Below are positions 44,824 to 51,501 of a stretch of DNA of 56,449 nucleotides, piece by piece. A program made the position numbers and the translations under genes. Source of the DNA: Planctomycetota bacterium (GTDB lineage: Bacteria; Planctomycetota; UBA1135; GCA-002748355); contig JAJRTL010000338.1 in NCBI GenBank assembly GCA_024278315.1, positions 1 through 56,449 on the forward strand, written 5' to 3'. Each line of letters begins with the position of its first letter. The stretch's first letter is position 1. Below the pieces are notes generated by a model that saw nothing but the letters and a program-made list of their open reading frames with translations, was not told the DNA's origin and did not search any database.

Positions 44824-45027
44824 CCTTCGGACTCTTCATGCCCTTGGCAGGTCGCCGACCCCGGTAAGAAGGCCTCGGATCGCAACCATGCAGAGCCAAC
44901 CGCCAGGCTTGCGGCCCTGGACCGAAAGATCAGCGTCAGACGCATCGAGGTCATGAATCGTTCGGGCTAGTGCGGGCCTGCGAGGGCAGAAGAGGATTCG
45001 CCTGCTCAGGAATCGTGCGATCCGCCC

Positions 45028-45059
45028 TTGACCCCGTACCCAGGCACAGGGTCTACAAT
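45028..45059 (+). promoter_or_regulatory. MerR-type promoter: TTGACC, 20-nt spacer, TACAAT, upstream of merR
   Basis: TTGACC at 45028-45033 and TACAAT at 45054-45059. The spacer CCGTACCCAGGCACAGGGTC contains a CCGTAC half-site and a GACCC/GGGTC dyad. Confidence 0.5.
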
Positions 45060-45090
45060 CTCCCCATCACCGAGACCGGGAGAGAATCGC

Positions 45091-45582
45091 ATGCATGCAA
45101 GACGGGAGAGAGGCAGCCTCAGGATCGGGCAGGTCGCAGAAGCCGCAGAGGTTCACATCGAGACGCTGCGCTACTACGAGCGCAAGGGGCTGCTGCCCCT
45201 GCCGCCGAGGACGCTCTCCAACTACCGGCTCTATCCCGAGGATGCGGTGCTACGCGTGCGCTTCATCAAACGGGCGCAGGAGCTGGGCTTCACGCTTGTC
45301 GAAATCCGGGAGCTACTCGAGCTGGGCCAGCAGAAGGATGGGGACTGCGCCGAAATCTGCCAGCGGGCCCGGGACAAGATCCAGGAGATCGAAGCCAAGA
45401 TCGCAAGCCTGCGGGCCATGAAGAGGAGTCTGACCCGACTCGAAGGGGCCTGTGCAGGGAGCGGTCCGCTGTCGGAATGCCCCATCCTCGAAGCCATGCA
45501 GACCGGAACCCGGAAGACAGGGATACAGAAGGCAGGCAGGAAGCCTGCCATGAGCAAGAAGAAGAAAGGAGCAAGGAAATGA
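45091..45582 (+). CDS. merR: Hg(II)-type MerR-family transcriptional regulator
   Basis: HTH segment LRIGQVAEAAEVHIETLRYYERKGLL. The Cys pattern DCAEIC ... GACAGSGPLSECPIL gives C...C-x8-C in the same positions as the MerR Hg ligands. Confidence 0.85.
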   Translation: MHARRERGSLRIGQVAEAAEVHIETLRYYERKGLLPLPPRTLSNYRLYPEDAVLRVRFIKRAQELGFTLVEIRELLELGQQKDGDCAEICQRARDKIQEIEAKIASLRAMKRSLTRLEGACAGSGPLSECPILEAMQTGTRKTGIQKAGRKPAMSKKKKGARK

Positions 45583-45839
45583 ACCAGAAGAAGATAGAGG
45601 TGTTTTCTGCAGGATGCTGTCTCTGTGACGAGACGGTAGAACTCGTCCGGAACATGGCCTGTCCCTCCTGCGCGGTCGAGATCCTCGACATGAGGAAGGC
45701 CGAGGTCGCCGAGCGCGCCAAACAACTTGGCGTGGCCCGCGTCCCCGCGGTCGTCATCGACGGCAAACTCGTGTCCTGCTGCGCCGGCACGGGCCCCGAC
45801 AAGGACGAACTCGGCAAGGCCGGTCTCGGCAAGCCCTGA
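45579..45839 (+). CDS. Small thioredoxin-fold protein (glutaredoxin-like, CCLC motif)
   Basis: MNQKKIEVFSAGCCLCDETVELV...VPAVVIDGKLVSCC. Its ATG overlaps the merR stop (ATGA). Confidence 0.7.
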   Translation: MNQKKIEVFSAGCCLCDETVELVRNMACPSCAVEILDMRKAEVAERAKQLGVARVPAVVIDGKLVSCCAGTGPDKDELGKAGLGKP

Positions 45840-46500: not shown

Positions 46501-47517
46501 TCAGAAACGGGCGCGCATGCCCAGGATGAAACGGTAGTTCTCTTCGAACTGGGAACCCGGAAGTTCCAGGAGGATCGGGAGCTGCACGGCGCTCTCGAAG
46601 AGCAGGTTTTCGCTGACCAGGACCTGGATGCCAGGCGTCAGGAAGATCTTGGTGCCGCCGGAATCATAGACGGTAACGCCGCCAGCGCTGTCCTTCTCCG
46701 CATAGATCGTGTTGAGCTCCAGGACGAGGTTGACCGTCGTCTGCGTGAAGCTCACGTACTTGGCGGGGATGAGCCGGAAAACGCCTCCGATGTCGAAGCG
46801 GTAGCTGTTGCCGAAGCGGAAGTCGTTGGCCTCACTGTTGATCTTGGCAATCAGGTCGCTGTTGACCTGCCAGCGTCCATCCACACGCGTGAAAGCCACA
46901 CCCAGGATCGCGTCCATGCCACCCGACCCGCTCTGCATCGGCTGCGGCAGACGCATACCCCCATCCTCGAGATCCGTGCGCCCCACCGGCAGTTCGAGCC
47001 CGAAGATCGCCGCCGCCTCCGTGGTCTCTCCGAGCCCGGCATCCTGGTAGATGCGTGCCTTGCCCACGACCGGCACGTCACCGATGCCCTGGCTGCGCAG
47101 GGTCTCCTTCTGCCCGCTCCCGGCATTGATCCGGGTCATGCTCTTGTCCAGCCAGGGAATCGTCGCCGAGATCGTCATCTTCTCGTTGATCCCGAAGACG
47201 AGTTTCAGCAAAGCTGCATGCACCGAGAGCTCTTGCGCGCCCTTGTCCTTGTCCGTGTAGACATAGCGCGGAACGACCGCCTGGCCATTGAAGTCCACAG
47301 TGCGCGCGGACTGGGTCACGATCGTGTCATCGTAGAGCAGGCCCAGCTGGATCAGCTGGCCCTCTCGGCTCTCGGGATCGATCTCCTGGGTCCCACCCTG
47401 CTCGCTGACGCGGGCTTCAGGAACGGACACGCCGTTCGCGCAAGCAGGAAGGAGAGCCGCCGCGAGCAGAAAACAGGCTCCAAGAAGCCTGCGGGAGAAT
47501 CGAGTCTCATCAATCAT
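46501..47517 (-). CDS. Outer-membrane beta-barrel channel (resembles the 'MetA-pathway/transporter' OMP family)
   Basis: Signal peptide/lipobox LLPAC, alternating beta-strand pattern, C-terminal ...RFILGMRARF (terminal Phe). It lies 30 nt upstream of the Sec-HMA lipoprotein gene. Confidence 0.7.
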   Translation of the reverse strand: MIDETRFSRRLLGACFLLAAALLPACANGVSVPEARVSEQGGTQEIDPESREGQLIQLGLLYDDTIVTQSARTVDFNGQAVVPRYVYTDKDKGAQELSVHAALLKLVFGINEKMTISATIPWLDKSMTRINAGSGQKETLRSQGIGDVPVVGKARIYQDAGLGETTEAAAIFGLELPVGRTDLEDGGMRLPQPMQSGSGGMDAILGVAFTRVDGRWQVNSDLIAKINSEANDFRFGNSYRFDIGGVFRLIPAKYVSFTQTTVNLVLELNTIYAEKDSAGGVTVYDSGGTKIFLTPGIQVLVSENLLFESAVQLPILLELPGSQFEENYRFILGMRARF

Positions 47518-47798: not shown

Positions 47799-48310
47799 TC
47801 AGGGAATCCGGATCCGACCGATCGGACTCGGCAGTGGCAGAGTGAGATTCTCATCCTCGAGCTGGATCTTCAGGTCCAGATCTCTTGGTCGTGGTCCATC
47901 CAACCTGTCTTGGTCAGCGAATCTGAACCCAAGCCCATAGGATCTCTCCTCAGGCAAGATGAGGCGCAGCAAGCCGGGCTGCCCCACGGTCCACTCTTCC
48001 AGACCCAACATATGTCCTTTGGACCAGGCCAGTACGTGGGCCACTCCCACTGGCAGCCCCGCGAAGAGCCTCGTCGTGAAACCCCTTGATCAACCACAAG
48101 CCGGTAGGCCCCGACACTCGAGCCACATCTTTCCATTTCTCATATCGTTTGAGATCCTCGATCGGTAGTCGCACGACACGAAGGCAGAATCGTCGCGACT
48201 CGTAGCCCCCCCACATACGCATGAGCCCGAACGACTCAAGGCCTCGCAACGTGCCTTGCCTCGACAGGAATGGCGCGAGATCTCCCAATGCCAACAGCTT
48301 CATCTCCACA
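47799..48310 (-). pseudogene. Frameshifted ORF of unknown function
   Basis: Frame A reads MKLLALGDLAPFLSRQ...GLWLIKGFHDEALRG and degenerates after about 48050. Frame B then reads sensibly (..LPVGVAHVLAWSKGHMLGLEEWTVGQPGLLRLILPEE...). A third fragment may continue to 47645. Confidence 0.35.
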
Positions 48311-48412
48311 CGCATGCAGAAGAGGGACCCACTCCACAACCTGGGAGCAAAGCCCCTGAGCCAAGAGCGAGACACGACGGATCGGAATCACGGGACATTC
48401 CAGGAACCCATC

Positions 48413-48430
48413 ATACCCCCCATGGGTATA
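48413..48430 (+). promoter_or_regulatory. CsoR-type operator-like inverted repeat ATACCC-N5-GGGTAT overlapping a TATACT -10-like box
   Basis: ATACCCcccatGGGTATA at 48413-48430. TATACT at 48427-48432 lies 6 nt before the ATG of the CsoR-family gene, and no SD is present. Confidence 0.45.
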
Positions 48431-48438
48431 CTGGCGTC

Positions 48439-48726
48439 ATGAAGACTGCGACCGGATATCTCGATCTCGATGCCAAGAAGCGACTCCTCAACCGACTGTC
48501 CCGTATCGAGGGGCAGATCCGGGCACTCAAGGCCATGGTGGAGGAGGAGCGCTGTGCAGACGACATCCTGGTTCAAGGCGCGGCGGCAAGGGGGGCTCTG
48601 GGCCAGTTCCTGGCCAAGATGCTGGAGGCCCACCTGAGGGACTGCGTCCACAACTGCATGGAAGGCGATCGGCTGCAGGTCTCGGAGCGGCTCATGAAGG
48701 CCGTCTCGACGGCGCTCAAGCTCTGA
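48439..48726 (+). CDS. CsoR/RcnR/FrmR-family (DUF156) metal-sensing repressor, C-H-C type
   Basis: LLNRLSRIEGQIRALKAMVEEERCADDIL...EAHLRDCVHNC, showing Cys...His-x3-Cys ligand spacing. Confidence 0.85.
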   Translation: MKTATGYLDLDAKKRLLNRLSRIEGQIRALKAMVEEERCADDILVQGAAARGALGQFLAKMLEAHLRDCVHNCMEGDRLQVSERLMKAVSTALKL

Positions 48727-48771
48727 GACACCGGAGCTCTCCAGAGCGGAACACAGGGAGGAGAAGCGATC

Positions 48772-48936
48772 ATGGACAGCGTGCAGAAGGAAGAAAAGCT
48801 CGGTCGTGTCGCTGTAACCGGCTCACTCCTGGCTGCCATCGAGGGTGGCGGCTATTCAGCAAGACTGGAGGGCCGCCCCACGAGTCCGCCCGCGGGCCAA
48901 CCCACCAAGCGTCCCACAAGTCGCCCTGGCCGTTGA
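48772..48936 (+). CDS. Small 54-aa ORF of unknown function
   Basis: Strong SD (GGGAGGAGAAG) 9 nt before the ATG. The product is MDSVQKEEKLGRVAVTGSLLAAIEGGG...; its stop TGA overlaps the TTG at 48933 of the merA frame. No recognisable MerT/MerP/MerC features. Confidence 0.3.
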   Translation: MDSVQKEEKLGRVAVTGSLLAAIEGGGYSARLEGRPTSPPAGQPTKRPTSRPGR

Positions 48937-48956: not shown

Positions 48957-50393
48957 ATGAACGAGAAGAAGTCATCGGAACGTCCCTCCCACCTCGTCAT
49001 CGTCGGAGGCGGCTCGGCCGCCTTCTCCGCGGCCCTCACGGCCGAAGGGCTCGGTCTCGAGGTCACGCTGATCAACGAGGGCCTGCCCATCGGCGGCACC
49101 TGCGTCAATGTGGGTTGCGTGCCGTCGAAGGCCCTGCTGCGCGCAGCCGAGAGTCTGCACCGCGCGCAACACACACCCTTCGATGGGATCGGTGCGAGTG
49201 GAGAGGTCACCGACTTCGCAGCCGTCATGGCGCAGAAGCAATCCCTGGTCGAAGGGCTGCGTCAGGTCAAGTATCTGGACGTCATCTCCGGCAAGAACAA
49301 GATCCGACGCGTCGAAGGACGCGGACGATTCGTGGCCAAGGATCGGGTGTCCGTGGAGACGCAGGAAGGCACGCGCGAGATCCAGGGAGATCTCTTTTTG
49401 ATCGCGACCGGAACTCGGCCAGCTTCACCGGCGATCCCCGGGCTCGACGAGGTGCCCTGCCTGGACAACGAGTCGGCCTTCGAGCTCTGTGAACTCCCCG
49501 AGTCAATGATCGTCCTGGGCGGTCGCTACATCGCGCTGGAGATGGCGCAGATGTTCGCGCGCTTCGGCACGAAGATCACGGTCCTGCAGCGCTCGGCCAG
49601 CATCCTGCCGACCGAGAGCGAAGCGCTGACGAGCGCGCTTGCTGGCTACCTGACCCAGGAGGGACTCGACATCCAGACCTCCGTGCGCATCGAGCAAATC
49701 GAGGAGGAGGGAGGGCAGATCCTGATCCGGGCGACACAGAATGGCGAGCCCAGGGAATACCGCGCCGCCAGGCTTCTGAGCGCGCTCGGCCGCGCGCCCA
49801 ACACCGAGGGCCTGGGGTTGGAGGAGATCGGCGTCGCGCTGACCGACAGAGACTTCGTGGCGATCGACGAGACCTTGCAGACTTCCCAGCCTGGGATCTT
49901 CGCCGCAGGCGACGTCATCGATGACCCGAGCTTCGTCTATACCGCTGCCTTCGAGGGCGCGCTTGCGGTGCGCAATGGCGTCGACGGTGCTCTGGAGAAG
50001 CGCGACTACACAGCGCTGCCCTGGGTCGTCTTCACCGATCCACAGGTGGCCGGCGTGGGGCTCGACGAGAAGCAGGCCGCCGATCTGGGGCTCGTGGTCG
50101 ACAGCCGGACCCTCCCGCTGGACCAGGTGCCGCGCAGCCTGGCAGCTCGCGACACCCGCGGATTCGTCCAACTGATCCGCGATCCTGAGCGGGATGTCCT
50201 GGTCGGTGGCCGGGTGCTCGCGGCCGAGGGCTCGGAACTTCTCATGGAGATCGCAATGGCCATCCGCTACCAGATTCCCGTGCGGGAGCTGGCCCGAAGC
50301 TTCCACGCCTATCTCACTCTCTCGGAGGCGGTCAAGCTGGCGGCCATCACCTTCGAGAAGGACATCAAGGAACTCAGTTGTTGTGCCTCGTAG
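48957..50393 (+). CDS. merA: Mercuric reductase (core enzyme without an NmerA domain)
   Basis: VIVGGGSAAF (FAD), redox-active GGTCVNVGCVPSK, and the C-terminal KELSCCAS vicinal Cys pair diagnostic of MerA. An alternative TTG start lies at 48933. Confidence 0.9.
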   Translation: MNEKKSSERPSHLVIVGGGSAAFSAALTAEGLGLEVTLINEGLPIGGTCVNVGCVPSKALLRAAESLHRAQHTPFDGIGASGEVTDFAAVMAQKQSLVEGLRQVKYLDVISGKNKIRRVEGRGRFVAKDRVSVETQEGTREIQGDLFLIATGTRPASPAIPGLDEVPCLDNESAFELCELPESMIVLGGRYIALEMAQMFARFGTKITVLQRSASILPTESEALTSALAGYLTQEGLDIQTSVRIEQIEEEGGQILIRATQNGEPREYRAARLLSALGRAPNTEGLGLEEIGVALTDRDFVAIDETLQTSQPGIFAAGDVIDDPSFVYTAAFEGALAVRNGVDGALEKRDYTALPWVVFTDPQVAGVGLDEKQAADLGLVVDSRTLPLDQVPRSLAARDTRGFVQLIRDPERDVLVGGRVLAAEGSELLMEIAMAIRYQIPVRELARSFHAYLTLSEAVKLAAITFEKDIKELSCCAS

Positions 50394-50433
50394 AACGCAG
50401 GCGCACAGTCATCCTGAACAGGAGCAGCAAACC

Positions 50434-51501
50434 ATGAAGAACCAGTCCATGACAGCCGCCGCAACGCTGCTCTCGCTGGCAGCACTTCTCCCGACCGGCC
50501 TGGATGCCCAGGCCACGTCGAAGAAAGCGGCAACCGAGGGGAAGTCCCGCATCATGACCGTCGACATCACCGGTATGACCTGAGGGATGGGCTGAGCGCC
50601 GCAGGTGCAGAAGGCCCTGCAGTCCCTACCGTGGGTAGGGAAAGTCCAAGTAGATTTCGAAAGCAAGACCGCCAAGGTCGAAGTCGAGAAGACTCGTTTC
50701 GATCCGGCCAAGATCATTGCAGTCCTCACGAAGGCCGGCTATGGCGGCAAGATCCAAGCCAAGGATCTCGCGAAGGCCAAGGCAATGGACTCCGTCATCG
50801 TTTTCCGCGTCCTTGGCATGAAGAAGGCCAAGTCGGGCGCGACCTGAATGGGCTGACCGGATGCGGTCACCGAGGCCCTGGATGGGTCTCACCAAAGCAA
50901 GAAGGTCACATGGGACTACGAGAAGGATCTCATCAGGATCGAGTACGATCCCCAGAAGAGCTCTCCGGAGAAGTTGGCGGCGATCATCCGCAAGCTGGGC
51001 TACAAGGTCGAGACCGTGAAACCTGCGGACTCGAAGAAAACGGTCAGCCGCAAGGTGGTCCCGCCAAGCCTCGCCATCGGAAACCTGGCCCCGATACCGA
51101 CGAAAGCACCCGACTTCTTCCGCGAGGCCTTCGCGCGGGCGCAGAAGAGCGGACGGCCAATTGTCATCGACTTCTGGGCGACCTGGTGCGCGCCCTGCAA
51201 GAAGCTCAAGCTGCTGACGCTGAAGGACCCCAAGGTGGAGAAGATCCTGGAGTCCGTAGAACTGATCTTCGTCGATACCGATACATACCCGGAACTGGCA
51301 AAGGCCTACAGGGTGACGAGCATTCCGGACCTCCTCTTCGTCGACCGAACCGGCAGGATCGCTGACCGTCTCCGCGGATTCGAGAGCGCCGCTCCCTTCG
51401 TGAAGCGGCTGCAGAAACTTCTCGCGATCCGTCCCGCATCCCGCCTGACTTCCCGCCCTGCATCCCGCCCTGCATCTCGCCCTGCATCCAGACGACGTTG
51501 A
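50434..51501 (+). CDS. Secreted 2xHMA-thioredoxin fusion protein with four in-frame TGA codons at the metal-ligand positions (predicted selenoprotein)
   Basis: AGGAG lies 9 nt before ATG 50434. Signal peptide MKNQSMTAAATLLSLAALLPTGLDAQA. HMA1 reads ..IMTVDITGMT-TGA(50581)-GMG-TGA(50593)-APQVQKAL.. and HMA2 reads ..VFRVLGMKKAKSGAT-TGA(50845)-MG-TGA(50854)-PDAVTEAL... A Trx domain follows (FWATWCAPCKK, Cys codons at 51187 and 51196), then an (SRPA)n tail. The three track ORFs 50194-50583, 50605-50847 and 50974-51501 are all in one frame. Confidence 0.8.

Follow-up and report, generated by a model that had tools for sequence, protein, structure and literature searches.

A putative four-selenocysteine fusion of two HMA domains and a thioredoxin domain encoded beside merA in an uncultured Planctomycetota lineage

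The window analysed here is a stretch of 56,449 nucleotides (nt) from a Planctomycetota bacterium (NCBI GenBank assembly GCA_024278315.1, contig JAJRTL010000338.1, positions 1 to 56,449 of the forward strand). In its list of open reading frames (ORFs) three entries, 50194-50583, 50605-50847 and 50974-51501, share one frame and are split by TGA codons, as a preliminary description made from the sequence had pointed out. The question raised by this locus is whether these are independent small genes, the remains of a broken gene, or one gene at 50434-51501 in which four internal UGA codons are read as selenocysteine (Sec; U in the motifs below), which is what the preliminary description had proposed. 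The three ORFs are almost certainly a single gene for an exported protein, and judged from sequence it is very probable that this gene needs all four UGA codons to be recoded as Sec. The fuller reading, in which the four-Sec product also handles mercury, is probable, with less confidence than the recoding itself.

One reading frame with four internal TGA codons

The frame at 50434-51501 has 355 codons and contains four internal stops, all TGA, at residues 50, 54, 138 and 141; the terminal stop is also TGA (51499-51501). The codon contexts that had been quoted for the two TGA pairs agree exactly with the sequence. Pfam, NCBIfam and protein searches were run with U read as C. When the frame is read through in this way it encodes a predicted signal peptide, two complete HMA folds and a thioredoxin domain with a WCAPC motif, as seen from the translation, the Pfam matches and structure alignments, so that the pieces form one gene as had been suggested. 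The Pfam HMA profile (PF00403) matches in two stretches with 75.6 bits, which passes the gathering threshold of 24.8, and phmmer alignment to B. subtilis CopA and to MerP (1AFI) places the four TGA codons, two per domain, on the cysteines of the GMTCxxC motif, i.e., on the metal ligands. The spacing between the ligands is the canonical two residues in HMA2 (U-M-G-U), and HMA1 has a one-residue insertion (U-G-M-G-U). To our knowledge the CxxC of HMA domains is a metal site in every characterised member. The chance that four random nonsense hits would fall on exactly these codons is about 1/C(355,4) = 1.5e-9, in line with the earlier argument that random mutation is unlikely to strike these codons only.

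The thioredoxin domain (Pfam PF00085, 55 bits against a cut-off of 23.5) has its CxxC active site, in which Cys252 and Cys255 are both encoded by TGC, and W251, C252, P254 and C255 are invariant among the orthologues described below. Its NCBIfam match is to the C-terminal domain of DsbD (profile positions 465-572 of 574). In several orthologous loci (numbered with L) the type-I signal peptide is replaced by a lipobox, i.e., LAVAGC in L092, ALFGC in L120 and IAVGC in L100, which is consistent with an extracytoplasmic location. PASR/TSRP-like repeats resembling those in the low-complexity tail of the window protein recur at the C-terminus of a MerT-HMA protein in L122 (7587-8261, 3' end) and in the linker of the L001 protein.

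Orthologues were collected from independent assemblies, i.e., the NCBI metagenome-assembled genomes (MAGs) GCA_011321845.1 and GCA_016764635.1 and metagenomes from ENA, Logan and JGI. The census yielded 34 distinct orthologue sequences with TGA at the same ligand codons. Two HMA domains and four TGA codons are present in 11 of them, a single HMA domain in 15, and the other 8 lie on contigs truncated at the N-terminal side. The first HMA domain has the U-x-x-G-U spacing in all 11 two-domain orthologues. At 40-57% protein identity the orthologues retain the TGA codons, with conservation on either side of them. For example, the protein from GCA_016764635.1 (L004) reads TGMT-U-PAG-U-PP followed by SGAT-U-VG-U-PN and continues into a thioredoxin and a PDZ domain, Logan run SRR23287149 (L087) has two HMA domains with both U pairs retained, and ENA assembly ERZ23487747 (L088) has two thioredoxin domains. 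The hydrothermal MAG GCA_011321845.1 (L001) has one HMA domain with SGAT-U-MG-U-PN, and the same motif is found on the N-terminally truncated contig from Logan run SRR24269695 (L086). A close relative in JGI 3300009702 (L122) has the same four TGA codons; a codon comparison with the window, aimed at purifying selection, found very few differences. Metagenome DNA was also scanned with the pattern G-A-T-[U/C]-x-G-[U/C]-P-[DN]-x-V-T-[EK], in which TGA, TGC or TGT was permitted at both HMA2 ligand codons. All 31 matches were orthologous and all 31 had TGA at both positions.

Conversion of U to C in the query and search of protein records retrieved only N-terminally truncated relatives, which start inside HMA2, e.g., MEWDLKKDQLRI..., and carry the annotation 'DUF255' or 'thioredoxin family protein' in MAGs of Planctomycetes. 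When their contigs were read through TGA the N-terminal parts were recovered, with TGA at matching places; the public fragments are thus gene-calling artefacts of the same TGA codons rather than truncated orthologues. No full-length Cys orthologue was found in a word search of 5.8 billion proteins, and a HMMER search of 1.84 billion representative proteins with the fragment between the TGA pairs found no longer form of it embedded between cysteines. This search returned about 14 clusters of the same fragment, which extends from just after UGA-2 to ...KSGAT before UGA-3. Long HMA matches were considered as full-length Cys orthologues and rejected, as they are generic multi-HMA proteins or ATPases. 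A scan of genome contigs with generic thioredoxin motifs ([ILV]IDFWA[TK]W) found only unrelated thioredoxins with 27-43% identity. A Cys homologue of the HMA1 type does exist as a stand-alone secreted lipoprotein of 112 residues (P0053), in which the ligands have the C-x-x-G-C spacing (C-A-K-G-C). From these sequences the fused family looks Sec-only.

It could be argued that the gene has decayed to a pseudogene, that the TGA codons are errors of sequencing or assembly, or that three small genes stand here independently, and the public gene calls, which are fragments only (49, 65-106 and 175-423 residues), fit this view. The same four TGA codons are nevertheless present across independent assemblies from many samples and sources, neither TGC nor TGT appeared in a scan that permitted them, and the sequence is conserved around every TGA. 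In addition the fragments would part beta-strand 1 from helix 1 in each HMA fold, and four random nonsense hits would have the very low chance given above. As the TGA codons are kept across orthologues, pseudogene, assembly error and independent mini-genes are excluded by the comparative evidence, and this explanation is effectively refuted.

Three further observations concern individual members and their surroundings. One orthologue (P0069) has lost both HMA2 ligand positions (TKAGIILGEGPARI). In L118 (105-1163, reverse-complemented locus) HMA2 is followed by unrelated sequence without a thioredoxin domain and the translation contains X; this contig is probably chimeric or misassembled. A conserved ORF of 85-101 codons lies directly 3' of the PDZ-type orthologues (L004 7026-7283, L087 10865-11137 and L088 11330-11635; 45-86% identity between the loci).

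RNA hairpins and decoding of the UGA pairs

Insertion of Sec in bacteria requires a selenocysteine insertion sequence (SECIS) hairpin just 3' of the UGA. Two hairpins are found after each TGA pair, in the window by RNAfold (z about -2 against shuffled sequences) and in every orthologue as well, and RNAalifold applied to the alignments predicts the same two plus two hairpins. In the alignment of the HMA1 site (10 sequences) 96% of the cells are paired, compared with 29-45% when the partners are slid, and the corresponding values for the HMA2 site (31 sequences) are 88% and 30-52%. Compensatory double changes were observed for three pairs at the HMA1 site and one pair at the HMA2 site. Hairpin 2 has two pairs with such changes (A-U/G-C and U-A/C-G), and a Leu codon within it (CUA, UUG or UUA) changes in concert with the codons it pairs with, even though this alters residues (V/A and G/R). 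In hairpin B pair 37-49 covaries (UA 15, GU 8, UG 3).

Most pairs at the HMA2 site do not vary at all, and synonymous positions are frozen as well. Third-position entropy is 0 for the Val (GTC 30/30), Leu (CTG 30/30) and Gly (GGG 30/30) codons after the HMA2 UGA pair, whereas 36 conserved four-fold codons elsewhere in the gene have a mean of 1.5 bits. Within the HMA2 hairpins Glu is encoded by GAG in 22/22, the variable codon that precedes Val ends in G in 33/33, and a TCC is frozen; none of these positions was imposed by the DNA search pattern. Pairing combined with frozen synonymous sites is what one expects of a functional RNA structure inside a coding sequence; the RNA 3' of each TGA pair holds conserved SECIS-like hairpins.

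In the bSECISearch criterion the apical loop lies roughly 16-37 nt from the UGA. The distance is 25 nt from UGA-50 to the apical loop of hairpin 1, 35 nt from UGA-54 to that of hairpin 2, and 32 and 23 nt from UGA-138 and UGA-141, respectively, to that of hairpin B, so that all four are within this range, and the loops bear a conserved G. Hairpin A starts about 6 nt after UGA-138, has UGA-141 in its 5' arm and would occupy the mRNA entrance of the ribosome. Its layout recalls ribosome-pausing elements, and a role in pausing is speculation.

It is also conceivable that UGA is decoded as a standard amino acid, i.e., Cys by way of a thiophosphate-loaded tRNA-Sec, Trp by near-cognate read-through, or whichever residue a lineage-specific reassignment would give. 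UGA followed by C is a leaky termination context in E. coli, and the second HMA2 UGA is always followed by C. Moreover, a search of the 56-kb contig and of 31 related loci found neither selA, selB, selD nor tRNA-Sec, and a gene map guided by third-position GC content (GC3) together with Pfam showed no other obvious selenoprotein or sel gene, the scan for same-frame ORFs split by TGA being very noisy. Some Planctomycetes do have complete Sec machinery (PMC4807772). Against a standard amino acid, many genes of the contig use TGA as their normal stop: it ends czcA and the P1B ATPase at the ends of their profiles (at 1032 of 1035 and 726 of 729 positions), and the genes for chorismate synthase and a Cys/Met PLP enzyme likewise terminate at TGA. 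The tRNA-Trp of the contig has the anticodon CCA, which together with these full-length TGA-terminated genes excludes a genome-wide reassignment of UGA. The in-frame TGA codons occur only at Cys-equivalent ligands and are followed by conserved structured RNA, which is the signature of SelB-dependent recoding and not of leaky read-through, and Trp or Gly at the ligand positions would ruin the metal site. Decoding as a standard amino acid is therefore very unlikely, and Sec remains the preferred assignment.

Genomic setting and a possible role in mercury handling

The host belongs, by its sequence, to an uncultured Planctomycetota lineage: its RpoB has 83-86% identity to that of Planctomycetota MAGs and 68% to that of Engelhardtia mirabilis, and the window also holds rpoB/rpoC and a cluster of ribosomal-protein, EF-Tu and tRNA genes. 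The four-TGA gene is a member of a mer operon. Its ATG is 40 nt 3' of the stop codon of MerA (Table 1), and in L122 the order is repressor, MerT-HMA, MerA and then the four-TGA gene. The start of MerA is possibly at 48933, and its exact sequence, tried from two start codons, gave no database record. A repressor of the CsoR/RcnR family is found upstream in L001 and L122 as well as in the window. Among the orthologous loci 13 have a MerR gene, 10 have MerT-HMA, 9 have zf-CopZ and 8 have the outer-membrane protein of the Phenol_MetA_deg type; this last protein may provide the system's way in through the outer membrane. The HMA domain fused to MerT has cysteines (GMTCEAC), which indicates that Sec is specific to the exported protein. 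Farther upstream in the window are genes for an outer-membrane protein and a Zn/Cd/Pb-type P1B ATPase as well as czcABC-like genes. The small ArsE-type gene starts 8 nt after the MerR gene, both being members of this metal island, and the ORF list fuses the ArsE-type gene into a spurious ORF of 289 codons (44970-45839). A promoter and terminator scan gave nothing above chance.

Table 1. Features of the four-TGA gene and its surroundings (positions are those of the window)
Feature	Position	Strand	Basis
Single coding sequence, 355 codons, four predicted Sec codons	50434..51501	+	Translation, Pfam, orthologues of the same architecture with the same TGA codons
AGGAG ribosome-binding site, 9 nt before ATG 50434	50420..50424	+	Read from sequence
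Predicted signal peptide, MKNQSMTAAATLLSLAALLPTGLDA, cleavage predicted before QA	50434..50514	+	Sequence; signal peptides and lipoboxes of orthologues
HMA domain 1, residues 42-103, site T-G-M-T-U-G-M-G-U	50557..50742	+	PF00403 profile 1-61 of 62; CopA/MerP alignment
UGA, predicted Sec50, HMA1 ligand 1	50581..50583	+	TGA in 11/11 two-domain orthologues; first Cys of GMTCxxC
UGA, predicted Sec54, HMA1 ligand 2, U-x-x-G-U spacing	50593..50595	+	Conserved TGA; second Cys
Hairpin 1, HMA1 site, 7 base pairs (bp), bulged U, loop AGAAG	50601..50620	+	RNAfold; RNAalifold, 10 orthologues
Hairpin 2, HMA1 site, 8-bp stem, invariant GUG loop	50623..50641	+	97.5% of cells paired
HMA domain 2, residues 120-195, site S-G-A-T-U-M-G-U-P	50791..51018	+	Second HMA stretch; CopA/MerP alignment
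UGA, predicted Sec138, HMA2 ligand 1	50845..50847	+	TGA in 34/34 distinct orthologues
Hairpin A, HMA2 site, core UGACC/GGUCA at 50854-50869	50852..50871	+	Five core pairs kept in 30-31 of 31
UGA, predicted Sec141, HMA2 ligand 2, within 5' arm of hairpin A	50854..50856	+	TGA in 34/34
Hairpin B, HMA2 site, up to 8 bp, invariant apical GG	50872..50890	+	RNAfold, RNAalifold, pair counts
Thioredoxin-fold domain, residues 237-326	51142..51411	+	Pfam Thioredoxin, Thioredoxin_7; WCAPC at 51184-51198
Low-complexity tail, PASR repeats	51427..51498	+	Translation
MerA, mercuric reductase core, without NmerA, C-terminal CC	48957..50393	+	TIGR02053, 504 bits against 454
CsoR/RcnR-family metal-sensing repressor, 5' of MerA	48256..48726	+	Pfam Trns_repr_metal
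Outer-membrane protein, Phenol_MetA_deg type, C-terminal ...MRARF	46501..47517	-	Recurs beside HMA(Sec)-thioredoxin genes in 8 other loci
Small MTH895/ArsE-type thioredoxin-like gene, CCLC and SCC motifs	45591..45839	+	Thioredoxin_3, TIGR00412
MerR-family regulator	45028..45582	+	Pfam MerR

We infer from these data that Sec is inserted and the protein exported, and likewise its metal specificity and what the thioredoxin does, and the following scheme is proposed. The four UGA codons would be recoded as Sec by SelB and tRNA-Sec, directed by the coding-sequence hairpins 3' of each pair. The product would be an exported selenoprotein of 355 residues and a selenolate counterpart of periplasmic MerP, in which one or two HMA domains may bind Hg(II) or some other very soft ion through a pair of selenolates. 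Capture outside the cytoplasm would then occur with higher affinity than that of a dithiolate, and the protein could subsequently feed or buffer the MerT/MerA pathway or simply sequester the metal. The tethered thioredoxin, similar to DsbD-gamma and TlpA, would re-reduce the readily formed diselenide or selenenyl-sulfide and thereby keep the sites metal-competent. The source environments of the family include a hydrothermal-vent metagenome, a TARA ocean scaffold and JGI metagenome contigs. From these, together with the lack of Cys orthologues, it seems that competition with sulfide and thiol ligands for Hg calls for selenium.

The protein may alternatively be a genuine multi-Sec selenoprotein that does not serve mercury, i.e., one that buffers or chaperones Cu(I), Ag(I), Cd(II) or other thiophilic ions in the periplasm, or that works as a diselenide redox protein, with the mer neighbours being part of a general metal island. 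In agreement with this a CsoR/RcnR-type regulator lies beside MerA, the island includes czcA, an outer-membrane efflux protein (OEP) and a Zn/Cd/Pb-type P1B ATPase, the window is without merT, and the HMA domains score equally well against CopZ models and MerP. On the other hand, the MerA 40 nt upstream passes its equivalog cut-off, the gene order is repeated with MerT-HMA in L122, and MerR and MerT-HMA genes lie beside the orthologues in 10-13 loci. That HMA CxxC motifs are known as metal sites in the characterised members also speaks against it. A role unrelated to mercury is accordingly judged unlikely, and a selenolate mercury binder remains the preferred reading.

Besides the lack of Sec machinery in the sequences searched, several points weigh against this reading. 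First, with respect to the RNA, no Rfam family matches the hairpins, only weak chance matches on the opposite strand being found, more than one assignment of hairpins to UGA codons is conceivable, and hairpin A would unwind while UGA-138 is decoded. The DNA of the Cys homologue P0053 (L123) keeps 12 of 15 hairpin pairs, which in a sample of one speaks neither for nor against SECIS specificity. Second, if every insertion were as inefficient as in E. coli, placing four Sec in succession would come at a high cost. Third, judged by the redox potentials of UxxU motifs, a thioredoxin domain is a weaker reductant than the diselenide is an oxidant. Fourth, Hg passing from a diselenolate on to MerT cysteines would move thermodynamically uphill unless driven by MerA, and because of this a relay role is not assured. 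Fifth, merT is not found in the window, where 206 nt separate the CsoR-like repressor from MerA (48726-48933); the corresponding position in L122 (7246-9744) is occupied by the MerT-HMA (Cys) gene. Finally, the CsoR/RcnR-type regulator and the czcA and P1B ATPase genes of the island make another soft metal possible.

It is tempting to combine these elements into one picture, namely a family of obligately selenium-dependent, exported metal traps whose chains carry as many as four Sec and include a previously undescribed U-x-x-G-U diselenolate site. In this family selenolate would be required to strip Hg(II) from sulfide and thiol complexes in sulfidic marine and hydrothermal sediments, and recoding would use tandem hairpins of which one binds SelB and the other pauses the ribosome at its entrance. 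Taken as a whole this picture is tentative, and it is rather doubtful that all of its parts hold together.

Comparison with known families

The preliminary description had left it undecided whether HMA proteins with U-x-x-U sites were already catalogued. They are: NCBIfam holds NF041115, 'UxxU_metal_bind' metal-binding (seleno)protein, and the family listing of a 2026 review includes a UxxU HMA selenoprotein with 2 Sec ('putative mercuric reductase'), after Zhang and Gladyshev (2007). The fused form with four Sec is not catalogued, and full-text literature searches for HMA or mer-operon selenoproteins with SECIS elements gave nothing further. The window protein shares with NF041115 the HMA fold, Sec at both CxxC ligands, the mercury or metal annotation and truncation by ordinary gene callers. 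However, NF041115 is a stand-alone model of 74 positions with two Sec, whereas the window protein has two domains, four Sec, a signal peptide and a fused thioredoxin. It also misses the NF041115 cut-off of 95 bits, the scores being 63.2 for the full protein, 37.3 and 33.1 for the isolated domains and 55.9 for the orthologue L004, and only HMA2 (U-M-G-U) fits the U-x-x-U motif of the model, HMA1 (U-G-M-G-U) deviating from it.

MerP (TIGR02052) is similar in that it is an exported HMA protein, has a GMT-C/U-xx-C/U site, has its gene beside merA and merT in a mer operon and is presumed to capture Hg(II) outside the cytoplasm. It differs in having cysteines and a single domain without thioredoxin, and the window protein reaches 45.2 bits against the MerP cut-off of 92.55. 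A selenolate site would alter both the affinity and the energetics of hand-off relative to MerP. The thioredoxin part resembles the exported thioredoxin folds with WCxPC in DsbD gamma and TlpA-ResA, but the membrane domain of DsbD is absent and the DsbD-type profile gives 56 bits against a cut-off of 330. The Trx7/PDZ (seleno)protein family NF041199 has a PDZ tail like that of many orthologues, but its Sec lies in the thioredoxin motif (CxxU), whereas the CAPC of the window protein is all-Cys; only the PDZ part of the orthologue L004 matches this model (43 bits against a cut-off of 300).

Sec in place of Cys at heavy-metal sites is also known from genome predictions only, for NF045683 (MerT/CopZ fusion-like), for MerT (C/SxxU) and for P1B-type ATPases (UxxC), and the latter two are among the selenoproteins listed in the 2026 review. 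Unlike the window protein these are membrane proteins with one Sec per site, and the score of the window protein against NF045683 is 53 bits with a cut-off of 375. The same review lists 119 prokaryotic selenoprotein families, which have one Sec or, in a few cases, 2-3, so that the known Sec count per bacterial protein would be raised to four.

If the assignment is correct, it adds a widespread and consistently mis-annotated family to the bacterial selenoproteome, of which public records call only the C-terminal piece. Selenium would be placed at a metal site within a mercury-resistance operon, which makes the long-discussed antagonism between Hg and Se testable on one defined protein, and the protein would be worth considering in sensing or remediation as a candidate Hg(II) binder of ultra-high affinity. 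With UGA pairs 2-3 codons apart and two hairpins for each pair, the gene could also provide a natural test case for SelB-dependent recoding of closely spaced UGA codons. Relative to the families compared here, what is new is the predicted tandem of Sec-Sec HMA domains with four Sec, the U-x-x-G-U site, the fusion to thioredoxin with or without PDZ, the apparent restriction of the family to Sec forms, and the occurrence in mer operons of Planctomycetota.

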